Below the pieces are notes generated by a model. It was not told where the DNA came from. It searched no databases and saw only the letters and a list, made by a program, of their open reading frames with translations. This document shows positions 30,795-38,381 of a stretch of DNA of 64,000 nucleotides, in pieces (positions within the stretch are counted from its first letter, which is position 1; the number at the start of each line of letters is the position of its first letter). Both the position numbers and the translations under genes were made by a program. Origin of the DNA: an uncultured candidate division Zixibacteria bacterium (GTDB lineage: Bacteria > Zixibacteria > MSB-5A5 > UBA10806 > 4484-95); the NCBI GenBank assembly GCA_963668625.2, contig CAXXKA010000008.1, forward strand, positions 896,001 to 960,000. The letters run 5' to 3'.

Positions 30795-33700
30795 TCATTG
30801 GCGCGTGTAATGCAAACTCTTTGATTTGGGCTTTGCCGATCTGGACATTTTATCGAGTTCCGCTCGCACTGCTATTGCGATCGTTTTCATGGTAAGAGGT
30901 TTTCTGATATAAGAACCTGCTCCGAGTTCGAGCGCCGCCTTCACACGATCAGTTTCAGCGTATCCCGAAACTATGATAGCTCGCTGCTTGGGATTGATAT
31001 TAAGAGCCTGTTTGTAGGTCTCGGCGCCGTCGATACTCTCGGGCATTATCATATCCAGTATTAAAAGGTCGAACGAGCGGGTATTCAAAATCGATAAAGC
31101 CATCTCACCGGAATCGGCGGCCACAACCTCGTAACCGAGTTGTGCAAGTAAAGCAATGGCTATCTCGCGTTGAGTCTGATCATCATCCACGACCAGTATG
31201 CTTTCATCGCCACCTTCGATTTTGTCGGATGCCTCCTCTCTTACCTGTTCACGCGTAATCGGGAAATACAAAAAGAATCTTGTGCCTTCGTTCGGTTTGC
31301 TCTCAATATCCACGAAACCGTTATGATCCTCCATTACGGCATGCACTACACTTAAGCCGAGGCCTGATCCTCGCGAAACATCCGCGCGTTTGGTAGTAAA
31401 GAACGGATCGAATATTTTGGGTCTGACATTCTCTGGAATACCACAGCCGTTATCGCTGATAGTAAGTTTCACGTATTCGCCCCTGGGTATCATTCCATAG
31501 CGGGCGACCGAGTCATCGATATAATAATTTTCGGTTCGTATCTCAACCTTGCCATCCCTACCGAGAGCATCCCAGGCATTCGTTAGAAGGTTGGCGATAA
31601 CGCGGCTTATTTGAGATTTTCCACCATTTATATTCATAAGATTGGACGAGTAATGTTTCAGTAACGGTTTATCCCCTTTTTCAGAGAGCATGCTACTGAC
31701 GACGCTGTCTATAACAGCATTCAGGTTCAGCGGTTCGAGATTATAATGCCCCCGTCTGCCCAGGACTAAAAGCTCCTGGTTGATTTCCGCCATATATAAG
31801 GCGGCCTGTTCCATTTTTTGGATATATTTCATGGCGGGATGATTGATATCCAGTATCCCTCTGATAATATCAGGATAGGCGGTAAGCGGCCCCAGAAGGT
31901 TGTTGAAATCATGGGCGATTTGCCCCGATATTCGGCCGGCCGTCTCTAACCTCTGGGTGCGGTTGACAAGCTCCTCTAGGTTTTTCTTTTCGGTAACATC
32001 AATTACCGCCATGATAGCGCCTTCATAATTCCCTTCGGAGTCGAGCTTGGGCGACACGGTTGCCAGGATGTGTTTCTTGTTTCCTTTTGCGGTAATTATT
32101 TCCAACTCATACTGTGAATTACTATCCAGTCTTCTTGACTCCCCAATTTTATGCAAGTATTCATGCAGCTCATCAGGAATAAAATCGAAAATTCTTTTCC
32201 CTACCAGCGCTCCCGGATCGCTCACCTCGAGAATTTGCGCTAAAGCAGGATTGCTAAAAAGGAAGTTCCTGTGCTCATCGACTACACTTATCCCCTCCAA
32301 TACCGAATCGAATAGTTGTTGATAACGCTGTTCCGATTCCCTCAGTTCGATCTCGTATTTCTTGCGTGAAGTGATGTCTCTTACGATTGCCAGAATAAAA
32401 TCCTCATCACTGAGAGAGAATTGATTGAGGCTTACCTCGGCATCGAATAAGGTTCCATCCAGACGGAGGTGTTTCCATTCGAAAAATTGCGGTTGGCCGT
32501 TCAATGCGGCCTTGATTTTTTCCATCGCTTTATCCGAAGATAACTCTCCCTTATCCTGATATTCAGGAGATAATTTGTATGGCGACTTGCCAACTATATC
32601 TTCTCTTTTACACTTGAATATTTCGAGTGTTTTAGAGTTACAATCGATAAATAATTCACCTTTCATAATAAATATGGAATCATTGGCTGATTCGAATAAT
32701 GTCCTGTATTTCTGCTCGTTCTCTAATCTTGCTTGTTCTGCTAATTTGCGCTCCGTGATATCGGGGAAAACAAGGAAACTGGCTATGAGCTTGCCTGCTT
32801 TATCGAATAAAGGAATGCAATCGACAATAGCATAGCGCACGGACCCATCCTCCCTGACTATCCTATGCTCCCGTGTTAAGGTTCGCTGTCCTTTCAGCGC
32901 TTTGACAAGAGGAAGTTCATCGAAAGGGATCAGGTTTCCATCGACGTCATAGTCTTTCCAGGTTATCGCCAAATCCAAAATGCTTACACCAACCTGGGAT
33001 GGGATATCGCTCACGGCAAGAATATCGCTGCAAGCCCGGTTATACATCCTGAGCACCAAATCAGGTGAACTCACCAGAGCCATAGGTATAGGCGATTGAT
33101 CTATGATCGATTCGAGCAGCGACTTCGAGTTTTCCAGTTCATATTCTGCTTTTTTTCTATCGGTAATATCTTTGCCAACCCCACGTATACCAATTACTTG
33201 GAATTCATTATCATATACGGGTAATCCCGATAGTTCAAGAAATACATTATGGCCATCCAGATGTTCGAATCCCAACTCGATACCCGAAAATGGATGTGGA
33301 TCGTCTAAAGTATTGTTTCTAATACTATTAAGTTTTTCCGTATCTTTAGGTGCTACGAAGTCAAAGATGTTTTTACCGACAATCTCGTCTGCCTTAAAGC
33401 CCAGTATTTCTACAATTTTAGGACTCATATAGGTGCAGTTCAGTTCATTGTCTGTTTCCCAGATTATATTCTCGGAGGTTTCTATTAACGATCTGTATTT
33501 TTTCTCATTATTGGTAAGCGCTTCTTCGATATTTTTCTGATGCGTGATATCCCGAAACATCGCTGCTACCTTACCCTGGGTGATTTGGAATACCACGACC
33601 TCATACGCGCCCTTTATCAAACCACCTTCGTAATCGACCCGCTCGGTTCGCCAGGGAGTACCCTCCAGGGCCGCCCATTTGTAACGCTCGGGAACCTCGG

Positions 33701-34379
33701 TATTTTTCAATTGAGGAAACGCCTCATCGATTGTTTTTCCGATAAATCGAGAATGCTCCTCACCGAGTATTCTATCTGCCGACTCATTTGCGCCAACGAA
33801 CACTAAATTACCGTCACTATTAATGTCGTAAAGATGTATCCCGAGAGGGGAGGCTTCGATGATGTTACGGAATGTGTTTAAGCTTTCATCCAGGGCGCTT
33901 TTCAATTTTACCTGTTCGGATATATCCTCAACCGATAATGCTATACCGTCAAATTCGTTGTTTTTGTCAAATAGCGGGGCGGCGCTTAAAGACACTATAA
34001 TATGTTTGGAGTCTGGGAATTCTAATTTATACTGCTGGTTGTTTAGAGGTTTTAATGTTTTTTGGATGACTTCGAAAGGCTGCTTACTTATGGGAACTGG
34101 ATTGTCGTTTAAATCTTTGACAGTCAGTTTGGCATTAGCGTATTTTTCATTGAGTACGTCATTTCTGTTTAATCCAAGTAACTGTTCCGTATAGCTGTTA
34201 AGTAAAACTACATTTTGACATTTATCGATTACAGCGAGTCCGGTTGGAATCTTTTCTATGATTCTTTCTAGGAAATCTCTGCTTACGTGCTTTTTTTGTT
34301 TATATTCGAGCTGTTCTTCCAGGTCTTTGACTTTTGCTTCAAGCTCGTCTATTCGCTTTAATAATCTTTTTTGGGTCAT
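30795..34379 (-). CDS. Multi-PAS hybrid sensor histidine kinase/response regulator
   Basis: About six PAS repeats (DISEQ, DITHQK, DITDRK, DITERK, DITSRK, DVTEKK), AHDFNNLL H-box, [15 protein letters not shown]-terminal receiver. Confidence 0.93.
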
Positions 34380-34675: not shown

Positions 34676-34704
34676 TTGACTTTATCTTGCTTGCTGTTTA
34701 ACAT
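34676..34704 (+). promoter_or_regulatory. Sigma70-type promoter of tRNA-His/hisS
   Basis: TTGACT-17 bp-TAACAT. Confidence 0.6.
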
Positions 34705-34717
34705 AGACAGGTATTTT

Positions 34718-34791
34718 GCCGACGTAGCTCAGCTGGCTAGAGCGCCTGACTGTGGATCAGGAGGTCTTGGGTTCGATCCCCGACGTCGGTA
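34718..34791 (+). tRNA. tRNA-His(GTG): no encoded G-1, G1-U72 pair, A73, CCA not encoded
   Basis: Cloverleaf with acceptor GCCGACG/CGTCGGT, D-arm GCTC/GAGC, anticodon arm CCTGA-CTGTGGA-TCAGG, T-loop TTCGATC. Confidence 0.95.
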
Positions 34792-34814
34792 TTTTTTTAT
34801 TCCGGAGGAAAATT

Positions 34815-36227
34815 ATGGCGGATGTTAAGCCGAGACTGTTAAAAGGGTTTAGAGATTTATTGCCAGATGAGGCGTTATTTCGCGAGCAGATTATCTCAAA
34901 GATTAGAAAAGTGTATGAATCATATGGATTTGCGCCTATCTCCACGCCGGCGCTGGAATATAAAGATATTCTACTTGGCTATGGCGAGGAGGCCTCCAAG
35001 CAGATCTACCTGTTTACCGATCCAGATAAAAACGAGGTCGGGCTTCGCTACGATTTGACTGTTCCGATTTCAAGGGTGATGGCTCAATATAAAGATATAG
35101 TCCGGCCGTTTAAACGTTATCAGATTCAACCGGTATGGCGCTACGATAAGCCCGATCCGGGGCGTTTCCGTGAGTTCATGCAATGCGATATCGATATTAT
35201 CGGCTCCAAATCAATGCTGGCGGATACCGAGATTATGGTTGTGATGGTTGAAGCGTCTAAAGCTATCGGCCTGGAAACGAAAATCAGGTTTAACAATCGT
35301 AAAATTCTAAACAGCCTTGTCAGATTCGTTGGTATGACCGAGGATTCCGCGCATTCGGTGTTCCGGGTACTGGATAAGCTCGATAAACAGGGGCTGGATA
35401 ATGTCAAGCTGGAACTCGGGCCGGGACGTAAAGATGAATCGGGTGATATGATAGCTGGACTCGGATTGAATGAAGATCAGATTGCAAAGATAGTCGACTA
35501 CATTCAGCTTCCCAGCAAGAACCGTAAAGAGGCGCTCGATTCGATCGGTTGTTTATTCGAATCTCTGGAGGGCAGCGAAGAAGGCATCGATGAACTGGCG
35601 CAGATAGATTCCAACCTGTCTTCCATGGGCGTATCCGATGATCAGGTGGTTATCGATTTCAGTATCGCCCGGGGATTAGATTATTACACGGGCCCGATAT
35701 TCGAGGCGGTTTTTACCAATGAGAAGATTAACCGGGTAGGCAGTATCATGGGGGGCGGACGATATGACAATTTAATCGGCAAGTTCGCCGGGCAAAATAC
35801 GCCGGCCACCGGTGGCTCAATCGGTATTGACCGCTTGATCGCGGCTATCAGGATGCTGGAAAAGAGCGCGCCGCGTTCCTCCACTGCTGATGTGCTGGTT
35901 ACGGTTATGGATAAGGATAAGCTTCCACGTTATATAAAAATCGCTTCTAAATTGCGATCCTCCGGTATTAAAACCGAACTGTACCTGGGTAAAGAAGGAG
36001 CAATCGGCAAGCAGATGAAATACGCTGACCGTGCCGGTATTCCTATCACGGTTATTGCCGGCTCCGATGAGTTCGAGCGGGACGAGATATCGATAAAAAA
36101 CCTGAATGTGATCAAACAGCAAGATGTTCAGATCGAGGACAGGCAGGAGTGGATCGATAAAAAGCCCGGCCAGGTTACAGTGCCGATGGCTAAAATGGTT
36201 GAAACGATAAAGTCGTTTTTGGAATAG
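34815..36227 (+). CDS. hisS: Histidine--tRNA ligase (alphaproteobacterial-like type)
   Basis: KGFRD, LRYDLTVP, GRFREFMQCDIDI, RGLDYYTG, GGGRYD, SIGIDRL, KQMKYAD. GGAGG RBS before ATG 34815. Confidence 0.96.
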   Translation: MADVKPRLLKGFRDLLPDEALFREQIISKIRKVYESYGFAPISTPALEYKDILLGYGEEASKQIYLFTDPDKNEVGLRYDLTVPISRVMAQYKDIVRPFKRYQIQPVWRYDKPDPGRFREFMQCDIDIIGSKSMLADTEIMVVMVEASKAIGLETKIRFNNRKILNSLVRFVGMTEDSAHSVFRVLDKLDKQGLDNVKLELGPGRKDESGDMIAGLGLNEDQIAKIVDYIQLPSKNRKEALDSIGCLFESLEGSEEGIDELAQIDSNLSSMGVSDDQVVIDFSIARGLDYYTGPIFEAVFTNEKINRVGSIMGGGRYDNLIGKFAGQNTPATGGSIGIDRLIAAIRMLEKSAPRSSTADVLVTVMDKDKLPRYIKIASKLRSSGIKTELYLGKEGAIGKQMKYADRAGIPITVIAGSDEFERDEISIKNLNVIKQQDVQIEDRQEWIDKKPGQVTVPMAKMVETIKSFLE

Positions 36228-36350: not shown

Positions 36351-38381
36351 ATGATTAAGACATCCCGCGCACTGCTAATAGCAATAATGTTAACGACTGC
36401 GGTTATGGCCGAACAATCAATCACATTCGATGATTTATACAGCTACCCCCAGCTCGAAAATTTCTGCCTTTCTCCCGATGGCAAATACATTGCCGCCGAG
36501 GTAACCGAGTACGATCTCTCGAGCGACGAGGCTTTCACCAATATCTGGATAGTACCGGTGGATGGCGGCGGGGTGTATCAACTAACAAATGGCGGAAATG
36601 ATACGCAACCGGCCTGGTCTCCGGACGGCAACCGTATCGCCTTTATCTCTACTCGCGGGGATGGTTTTACCGGGCAACTCTGGACTATATCGCTATATGG
36701 AGGCGAGGCAACCCTTCTAACCGACAACTACTCCGATTTCGCTTATCCGGTATGGTCAGGTGACGGCAAATCGATTATAGTGCAAACCTCGGTCTATCCC
36801 GAATGTAACGCGGATGACGAGTGTAACCGCCGGATTGACGAGGATAAAGAGGAAAGCGAGGTCAAGGCGATTCTTTATGATGATTTGTTATTCCGTCACT
36901 ATAAATGGTGGAACGATGGCAAGCGAAATCACTTGTTTCTAGTCGATACCCAAACCGGAGAGTACTCCGACCTGACTCCTTTCGATAAGGACGCCCCTCC
37001 GATAGCGGGAAGTTCCGATCCCGGGTACGCGTTCTCGAAAGAAAACAGCGAGATCGCGTTCGTCATGAACACCGATACGGTAGTAACGATTAGCACTAAC
37101 AATGATGTTTTCACGCTCAATATCAAAACCAATCACCTGACCCGTATATCCGATTCTCCCGGTTATGATGATAATCCCGTATATTCCCCTAACGGTCGGC
37201 TTATCGCATATCGTTCGATGGCGCGCGGTGGCTACGAGGCGGATCAGCGAGATTTGATACTGTATAAACGGGTAAACGGGGAATATGAAAATATAACTCA
37301 GGAGTTCGATCGTTCTGTCAACGAGGTTGTCTGGGGACCGTATTCGAAATATATTTACTTCAACGCGGTCGATCAGGGAAAAAGTAAGATCTACAAGCTA
37401 ACTCTTAAAACTGGTAAAATCACTACTCTTGTTGATGACGGCGTTTGCTGGAATTTACAGATTTCAAGCAATGGCCTGTATCTTTACTATATAAAATCTA
37501 CCGAAACCGAGCCATATGAGATATACGAGTACAACAGCAAGAACAACAGACAATCGCGTCTGACACATTTCAGTGATGAGCGGTTCAAAGATCTGGAGCT
37601 TTCACCTGCAGAGGATTTTCTGTTCATTGGCGCCAATCAGGATAGTATCCACGGCATGCTGACCTTCCCGCCGCAATTCGATAAAACATCCAGGTATCCA
37701 TTGGTACTTCTGATACACGGCGGCCCGCAATGGTGCTGGCTGAAAGATTTTAATTACTACGGCTGGAATACCCAGCTTATGGCGGCTCAAGGATATATAG
37801 TGGCGCAGATCGATCCTCACGGCAGCCGGGGGTACGGCCAGGTTTTCGTGGATGCGGTCAACAACGACTGGGGCGGCGCTCCGTATGAGGATTTGATGCT
37901 GGGGCTGGATTATCTGATAGCCGAGCATGAATATATCGATACCACGAAGTTAGCGGCGTTGGGGCGATCTTATGGGGGCTATATGGTCAACTGGATCTGC
38001 GGCCAGACGGACAGATTCGCCTGCTTGATCAGTGTCGACGGCAGTTTCGAAAATATCAGCGACTACTATTCCACCGATGAACTCTGGTTCCCGAACTGGG
38101 AGTTCGGCGGACCGCCCTGGGAGGCCAGGGCTAACTATCTCAAACATTCTCCGGCAGAATATGTGGCTAATTTCAATACCCCCACGATGGTGATACACAG
38201 CCAGTACGATTACCGGGTGGATATCAGTCAGGGGATCATGATGTTTACTGCGCTGCAGGCCAGAAACGTACCATCACAGTTTTTATATTTCCCCGATGAG
38301 GGACATAGCATCAGAAAACTTCACAACCACCGCCACGTATACCGTGAGCAATTCGAGTGGTTGGGCAAGTATTTGAAATAA
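36351..38381 (+). CDS. S9-family serine peptidase with beta-propeller, exported
   Basis: Signal peptide, WSPDG repeats, IHGGP, GRSYGG, DYRV, FPDEGH. Confidence 0.93.
   Translation: MIKTSRALLIAIMLTTAVMAEQSITFDDLYSYPQLENFCLSPDGKYIAAEVTEYDLSSDEAFTNIWIVPVDGGGVYQLTNGGNDTQPAWSPDGNRIAFISTRGDGFTGQLWTISLYGGEATLLTDNYSDFAYPVWSGDGKSIIVQTSVYPECNADDECNRRIDEDKEESEVKAILYDDLLFRHYKWWNDGKRNHLFLVDTQTGEYSDLTPFDKDAPPIAGSSDPGYAFSKENSEIAFVMNTDTVVTISTNNDVFTLNIKTNHLTRISDSPGYDDNPVYSPNGRLIAYRSMARGGYEADQRDLILYKRVNGEYENITQEFDRSVNEVVWGPYSKYIYFNAVDQGKSKIYKLTLKTGKITTLVDDGVCWNLQISSNGLYLYYIKSTETEPYEIYEYNSKNNRQSRLTHFSDERFKDLELSPAEDFLFIGANQDSIHGMLTFPPQFDKTSRYPLVLLIHGGPQWCWLKDFNYYGWNTQLMAAQGYIVAQIDPHGSRGYGQVFVDAVNNDWGGAPYEDLMLGLDYLIAEHEYIDTTKLAALGRSYGGYMVNWICGQTDRFACLISVDGSFENISDYYSTDELWFPNWEFGGPPWEARANYLKHSPAEYVANFNTPTMVIHSQYDYRVDISQGIMMFTALQARNVPSQFLYFPDEGHSIRKLHNHRHVYREQFEWLGKYLK

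Follow-up and report, generated by a model that had tools for sequence, protein, structure and literature searches.

A tRNA-His gene without G-1 adjacent to an alphaproteobacterial-type histidyl-tRNA synthetase gene in a Zixibacteria genome

The guanosine at position -1 (G-1) of tRNA-His is among the most conserved of tRNA identity marks. A pair of tRNA-His and histidyl-tRNA synthetase (HisRS) that dispenses with it is reportedly the subject of Ardell and Andersson (2006) and Wang et al. (2007), who are cited for the alphaproteobacterial pair labelled RRCH. Here we describe a similar pair in a 64,000-nucleotide (nt) stretch, called the window below, of the genome of an uncultured Zixibacteria bacterium (GCA_963668625.2; G000), in which a tRNA-His gene with no G at position -1 lies directly upstream of hisS. 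All positions are counted within this window, and both genes are on the + strand. We consider it highly probable that the locus encodes a working G-1-independent histidine pair of the Caulobacter crescentus kind, and that the two genes form a cassette which has replaced the pair formerly resident in this genome.

Canonical bacteria keep an encoded G-1:C73 pair through an unusual RNase P cut, and their HisRS reads it (PMC4357726, PMC3245924; here and below, papers are cited for those portions of their text that were available). The literature to 2023 presents, in these portions, an alphaproteobacterial clade as the sole bacterial exception (PMC3245924, PMC3937112, PMC9976931), and one of the three papers considers a single origin of that exception likely. 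The tRNA-His of C. crescentus has no encoded G-1, a first pair G1:U72, the discriminator A73, and a 9-nt D-loop that includes an extra U20a; its G-1-less transcript is fully charged and gains nothing from an added G-1, while changes to the anticodon cost 91- to 1000-fold and the change U72C costs 91-fold (PMC3064791). Our literature search returned no report of a G-1-less tRNA-His outside the Alphaproteobacteria, although the primary papers of 2006 and 2007 and the supplements were beyond its reach, and the result is not proof of absence. The exception in the literature is formed by phage and alphaproteobacterial 8/4 tRNAs (PMC5389517).

Two further systems bear a likeness to the locus described here. 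In Trypanosoma brucei and in Acanthamoeba castellanii, both protists, G-1 and Thg1 are likewise missing and the synthetase is G-1-independent (PMC4338351, PMC3561963); these systems are eukaryotic, however, and the trypanosome enzyme is a weaker match to the G000 HisRS than is the human one. The selC* tRNA-Cys and CysRS* also place an unusual tRNA beside a dedicated synthetase (PMC5389517), but they are extra pairs that accompany a normal one and serve a special codon, whereas the G000 pair is the cell's only histidine pair.

The tRNA-His gene and the type of its synthetase

ARAGORN finds a single tRNA in the window, a tRNA-His(GTG) called at 34717-34792, and the Rfam tRNA model RF00005 gives an end-to-end match at 34718-34791 (66.1 bits; E = 2.9e-14; model positions 1 to 71 of 71). 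The gene accordingly spans 34718..34791 (+). Its acceptor stem, GCCGACG/CGTCGGT, gives a first pair G1:U72, followed by A73 at 34791; position -1 (34717, +) is T instead of the canonical bacterial G, and CCA is not encoded, unlike in the alphaproteobacterial genes, where it is encoded in 10 of 10. The initial annotation had described the T before G1, the closing G1-U72 pair and the A discriminator in the same way, and all three are present in the sequence. No other tRNA-His was found among the 46 tRNA genes of G000, in which T is the most frequent base at position -1 (19/46) and G occurs there once. The D-loop, AGCTGGCTA, has 9 nt as in the RRCH pair; the canonical tRNA-His of sister families likewise has 9 nt, so the length does not discriminate here. 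A run of seven T residues (34792..34798, +) follows A73 immediately; a terminator scan called no terminator-like site, this run included.

The hisS gene (34815..36227, +) encodes a full-length HisRS of 470 amino acids (aa), which scores 390.7 bits against TIGR00442 (cut-off, 286.75) and also matches PF13393 and the HGTP anticodon-binding domain. It is the only copy in G000, an assembly of 4.30 Mb in 10 contigs with 95.9% completeness and 1.1% contamination. Family membership and the GUG anticodon are shared with the canonical systems of Escherichia coli and Thermus thermophilus, but the structures from these two organisms match the G000 enzyme at E values of 1e-26 to 1e-29 only, compared with 1e-74 for the best solved relative. 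Unlike those systems, that of G000 lacks G-1, C73, the motif-2 loop glutamine and the glycines of the G-1 pocket, and has two inserts added to its synthetase.

HisRS sequences for comparison were drawn from close relatives of G000, named genomes, a sample of 101 alphaproteobacterial genomes, canonical relatives, and E. coli, and the tRNA-His genes of the compared genomes were located by covariance model and ARAGORN. The tRNA model had its best match in another tRNA in 12 of the 30 alphaproteobacterial genomes and likewise in 11 of the 27 named genomes with a match; three further named genomes gave no match to the tRNA model, and G008 was left out of tRNA typing. In a 79-row HisRS tree, all 32 enzymes with a verified G-1-less tRNA-His form one clade together with 3 enzymes of unknown tRNA (Shimodaira-Hasegawa-like approximate likelihood ratio test [SH-aLRT], 99). 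The 20 enzymes whose genomes have a verified canonical tRNA-His (C73, with G at -1) all fall outside it. A 43-row tree with bootstraps shows the same split at 96.5/99. The clade holds 12 alphaproteobacterial enzymes, and for 10 of them a tRNA-His with G1:U72, A73 and no G-1 was verified; these 10 genomes are of the published RRCH type by its defining trait. Both trees group the G000 enzyme with the G-1-less type and away from the canonical, G-1-dependent enzymes.

Enzyme type and tRNA type also covary among the close relatives of G000. Of 31 such genomes searched, the best-hit locus was fetched for 30 and a tRNA-His was identified in 27; all 11 G-1-less tRNAs occur with this HisRS type, and all 16 canonical tRNAs occur without it. 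One member of the G000 sub-lineage, L251 (G261:C1), has directly upstream of its hisS a tRNA-His with G73 and an encoded CCA; the discriminator is therefore not fixed within the clade.

The sequence of the synthetase carries the marks of the G-1-less type. A glycine dipeptide shapes the G-1 pocket in the Thermus complex, and an aspartate pair takes its place in Caulobacter (PMC4357726). By alignment, the site of this dipeptide in the G000 HisRS reads DPDKN (residues 69 to 73; 35019..35033, +), an acidic replacement with no glycine; alphaproteobacterial enzymes have DDDDD or DDDEQ there, while the canonical pattern D-x-G-G/D is represented by DRNGD in E. coli and DQGDR or DLGGR in canonical Zixibacteria enzymes. 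The motif-2 loop, WRYDKPDPGRFREF (35136..35177, +), has Asp in place of the Gln of canonical ERPQ-KGR. A contrast at this position, between Gly in the RRCH clade and a C73-reading Gln in canonical enzymes, has been described (PMC3937112). The Gln is missing from all 35 clade members (30 Gly, 3 Asp, 1 Glu, 1 Ala), and 18 of the 20 enzymes with a canonical tRNA-His partner have it. Insert 1, GPGRKDESGDMIAGL, lies in the insertion domain (residues ~202 to 216; 35418..35462, +) and was found in 35/35 clade members, 12/12 alphaproteobacterial ones included, and in 0/44 others. Insert 2, RQEWIDKKPGQVTVPMAK, lies in the anticodon-binding domain (residues ~443 to 460; 36141..36194, +); it occurs in 34/35 clade members, the exception being L009, from which most of the insert is missing, and again in 0/44 others. 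Small peptide inserts in alphaproteobacterial-type HisRS are mentioned in PMC3245924. The initial annotation had described an insert peptide and a C-terminal peptide as alphaproteobacterial; both are present, and both recur in the alphaproteobacterial HisRS of G-1-less genomes. Thus, the G000 enzyme shares with the RRCH enzymes its clade, both inserts, and the loss of the motif-2 Gln and of the pocket glycines.

Given this homology and the shared signatures, we infer that the G000 pair works in the manner of the Caulobacter pair. The tRNA-His and hisS genes would be transcribed together; RNase P would cleave the precursor at +1, leaving a mature tRNA that begins at G1 with no additional 5' G; CCA would be added post-transcriptionally; and the HisRS, no longer possessing the pocket and loop residues for reading G-1:C73 and bearing two additional inserts, would recognize the anticodon together with U72 and A73. 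G000 encodes RnpA, the protein component of RNase P (71.9 bits; G000:C8:451048-451356).

Alternatively, RNase P might cut one base early, so that a mature U-1:A73 pair in an 8-bp stem is read under a variant -1:73 rule. ARAGORN does include T34717 in the tRNA and folds it into an 8-bp acceptor stem, where a U-1:A73 pair could form; about three-quarters of the listed non-alphaproteobacterial genes of the G-1-less type have T at -1. However, T is in any case the commonest -1 base among the tRNA genes of G000, and a, c or g occupies the position in L016, L017, G261, L009b, L007 and 4 of 10 alphaproteobacterial genes. The loss of the pocket glycines and the failure of G-1 to improve charging in Caulobacter (PMC3064791) also speak against an early cut, which we regard as quite unlikely. 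Another possibility is that an unrecognized enzyme adds G-1 after transcription and that the HisRS still depends on it, as in eukaryotes, whose tRNA-His likewise has A73. An A73 without an encoded G-1 is indeed the eukaryotic gene layout, and among the solved structures nearest to the G000 HisRS two bacterial ones are followed by human cytoplasmic HisRS. Yet a search for Thg1 (PF04446) gave no match in the whole of the 95.9% complete genome, while the control genome matched. Moreover, the enzyme has lost both the motif-2 Gln and the pocket glycines, and it sits in a clade with the alphaproteobacterial kind; the HisRS of C. crescentus, itself outside the tree, charges a G-1-less tRNA. Addition of G-1 in this way is therefore highly improbable, and recognition without G-1 remains our preferred reading.

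Linkage and probable replacement of resident pairs

The initial annotation held that the rest of the window does not look alphaproteobacterial, and RpoB agrees; G000 is not an alphaproteobacterial genome. The G000 protein is 83% identical to that of the genus mate G001, 71% to that of G010 from the same order, 65-66% to those of G028, from the same class, and of Zixibacteria genomes, and 56% to that of a Marinimicrobia genome; the values for an alphaproteobacterium and a Phycisphaeraceae genome are ~50%.

The HisRS phylogeny does not follow this order. Against the enzymes of its genus mates the G000 HisRS shows 43-46% identity, compared with 83% for RpoB between G000 and G001, and its nearest relatives, at 53-62% identity, come from five other families (f17, f12, f9, f14 and f15), with which it groups at an SH-aLRT of 99.6. 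This sub-lineage belongs to the half of the G-1-less clade that does not contain the alphaproteobacterial one. In the 43-row tree, the seven enzymes of G000's own family (f1) form a 100/100 clade within a 100/100 subclade that excludes the G000 enzyme. Forcing the G000 enzyme to join its family was rejected by an approximately unbiased (AU) test on the 43-row set under LG+F+G4, with a constrained tree from a fast search (difference in log likelihood, 111.5; P = 3.9e-5). The family enzymes (L088, L091-L095, L099) also carry an extra ~40-70 aa near residue 175 of the G000 enzyme, which lacks them; the corresponding hisS open reading frames (ORFs) encode 507-546 aa, and their BLAST matches are split in two. 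The tRNA points the same way, since the G000 tRNA-His matches that of G254, a Zixibacteria genome from another genus (g30), at 69/74 positions and those of its genus mates at 59-61/74. Finally, G000 and G001 are syntenic downstream of the cassette, and this synteny ends exactly where the neighboring gene, which may encode a peptidase, faces hisS. The resident pair of G000 thus appears to have been replaced by a pair of a sub-lineage other than the one to which the pairs of its family and genus mates belong. No conserved synteny was found around hisS among the family members, so that there was no means of demonstrating an "empty site."

Another history, in which the G000 pair came down vertically as the family pair and merely diverged fast, would fit with the whole family being already G-1-less with the same gene order, with the absence of any compositional anomaly over the cassette, and with the poorly resolved branching of subclade I. 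It is opposed by the AU test, by the well-supported family clade that leaves the G000 enzyme outside, by the missing insert near residue 175, by the covariation of the tRNA with the enzyme subtype, by nearest enzymes in five other families, and by the exact position of the synteny break; we judge it very unlikely. That the cassette came from another organism through binning or assembly is extremely improbable. G000 is a metagenome-type assembly in 10 contigs, but the cassette lies within a 1.4-Mb contig with downstream genes syntenic with those of a genus mate, and it holds the sole hisS and the sole tRNA-His of a genome with 1.1% contamination.

Adjacency of the two genes recurs in several deep-branching parts of the G-1-less clade, and a large number of other members lack it. 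The tRNA-His lies 20-40 nt upstream of hisS in G000, in 7/7 family members for which the data are contiguous, as well as in G028, G375, G254 and G261, and roughly 20-115 nt upstream in L005, L009, L011 and L012. Against the 23 nt of G000, linkage among the alphaproteobacterial genomes is confined to 2 of 10, with the tRNA-His ~100 nt upstream on the same strand (L173 [G090] and L178 [G109]), but these two suffice to show that linkage is not peculiar to non-alphaproteobacterial lineages. A swap is seen within the genus g30: five of its six genomes carry, on separate contigs, an ERPQxGR enzyme and a tRNA-His of the canonical kind (C73, g at -1), and the sixth, G254 (100% complete), has a linked G-1-less pair only, on a 514-kb contig. 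The initial annotation had proposed that the pair is physically linked and co-transferable, a proposal now supported by the linkage, the g30 swap, the discordant HisRS tree and the covariation of tRNA with enzyme. Judged from these comparisons, the linked tRNA-His and hisS genes appear to move between bacteria as a unit. As the two are adjacent, the whole identity rule can move at once and replace a resident pair in one event.

Gene layout, flanking genes and contrary observations

The spacer between the tRNA-His gene and the hisS ATG measures 23 nt; the 24 nt given by the initial annotation includes the A of the ATG, and the adjacency itself stands. A Shine-Dalgarno sequence, GGAGGA (34804..34809, +), lies 5 nt ahead of the ATG. 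Upstream of the tRNA gene, a promoter-like TTGACT-17 nt-TAACAT (34676..34704, +) matches at 9 of 12 positions and ends 13 nt ahead of G1. The single apparent promoter noted earlier is thus present, but such sites are barely commoner in the scanned region than in shuffled sequence (8 versus 5.5 ± 2.4). Co-transcription of the two genes is accordingly suggested mainly by the spacer, which is too short for a promoter, the promoter call being weak.

The cassette is preceded by a 340-nt, AT-rich gap (37% G+C) and, divergent from it, by a gene for a 1194-aa multi-PAS histidine kinase/response-regulator hybrid (30795-34379, -). Downstream lies a gene for a 676-aa protein (36351-38381, +) that is 64-68% identical to the syntenic ORF in G001 and that might, at a guess, be an S9-type peptidase. 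Elsewhere, G000 carries a tRNA-Sec gene (anticodon TCA; G000:C2:36055-36149), which makes the use of selenocysteine probable.

Several observations weigh against a Caulobacter-like pair acquired by transfer, in addition to the fold drawn by ARAGORN, the unremarkable G+C content of the cassette, the weak promoter and the fast search behind the constrained tree. The motif-2 residue of the G000 HisRS is Asp, unlike the Gly of the alphaproteobacterial enzymes, and Gly is also found in two enzymes paired with a canonical tRNA-His, so this residue alone is not decisive. No match to the RNase P RNA model RF00010 was obtained in the whole of G000, with 69 candidates scored; a divergent or unassembled RNA, or one overlooked by the first-look filter, may account for this. 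Next to the cassette, no genes of mobile elements were noted. The tRNA-His and hisS genes are unlinked in G030, L008, L010, L013, L015, L016, L017 and 8 of the 10 alphaproteobacterial genomes, and most of the genomes compared are metagenome bins.

Distribution, origin and significance

The two HisRS types could not be told apart by E value alone, a separator that was rejected as the ranges overlap; insert-2 coverage and the tree are needed for this reason. In a sample of 201 Zixibacteria, 127 match at E ≤ 1e-60; 3 of these are of a shorter type, with ~40% identity and without insert 2, which leaves the G-1-less HisRS type in ~124/201 genomes, the tRNA having been checked in a subset. The type was found in families f9 (68/73), f15 (21/21), f10 (11/12) and f7 (5/5), and in none of the sampled genomes of f2 (0/10), f5 (0/17), f18 (0/10) and f8 (0/8); sister families within G000's order retain the canonical system. 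Six of 101 sampled Marinimicrobia have the type, and verified pairs also occur in genomes titled Thermoanaerobaculia and Phycisphaeraceae and in two unclassified bacteria. The initial annotation had suggested that the exception might extend to another phylum. The case of G000 supports this, but the spread was understated, since it takes in most Zixibacteria as well as lineages with the labels Marinimicrobia, Thermoanaerobaculia and Phycisphaeraceae.

The submitter label Ignavibacteriales of L015 (G299:C7) was rejected, its genome being of the same class as G000. The genome of L008 (G283:C26), titled "uncultured bacterium," belongs to that class as well. Submitter labels therefore overstate the number of phyla involved. 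Two tRNA loci are unusual in themselves. In L215, from the Zixibacteria genome of L057, the tRNA-His at ~1501-1574 is an apparent mosaic, with a 5' half like the common Zixibacteria type (GCTGGGG), a 3' half like the G000 type, and a resulting mismatch of G6 with G67 in the acceptor stem; either an assembly chimera or recombination between tRNA-His genes of two types could explain it. In L009, from a 1.3-Mb genome that bears the label uncultured Gammaproteobacteria, hisS is preceded by a tandem of two G-1-less tRNA-His genes whose acceptor stems differ (2790-2971).

The trees also bear on the origin of the alphaproteobacterial system. The alphaproteobacterial HisRS form one clade in both (100; 99.3/100), which is sister to the f1 family of G000 (91; 94/97), and the two share a subclade (99; 100/100) with Marinimicrobia and an unclassified bacterium. 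With the enzymes of canonical tRNAs as the outgroup, an assumed root applied to a limited sample, the alphaproteobacterial clade comes out nested within a set of non-alphaproteobacterial lineages. Its position suggests that the RRCH ancestor acquired the system instead of originating it. A wider reading, which we put forward tentatively and hold to be somewhat short of an even bet, is that the G-1-less rule did not originate in Alphaproteobacteria but is an older mobile cassette of FCB-type bacteria, which the ancestor of the RRCH clade (Rhizobiales, Rhodobacterales and Caulobacterales) may have acquired once, by transfer, and which may still overwrite pairs within genera. The main home of such a cassette would lie, equally tentatively, in most Zixibacteria and a minority of Marinimicrobia, where it would replace canonical and other G-1-less pairs alike.

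New here are the distribution of the system across the phylum, the nested position of the alphaproteobacterial clade and the swaps inside genera. Together they make the G-1-less system the majority state in another phylum and place it in several more. Traits of tRNA-His are thus less safe as a phylogenetic marker than has been assumed, and annotation pipelines will draw these genes wrongly if they presuppose G-1. On the practical side, pairs of this kind may add to the natural candidates from which orthogonal histidine pairs could be drawn. With the alphaproteobacterial enzymes nested as they are, the origin of the rule becomes a different question. The within-genus swaps illustrate how an essential identity rule can change without a lethal intermediate, the tRNA and the synthetase arriving jointly and the old pair being lost; if the mobile-cassette reading is true, it would offer a concrete path for exchanging, in one step, a tRNA identity rule that is nearly universal.

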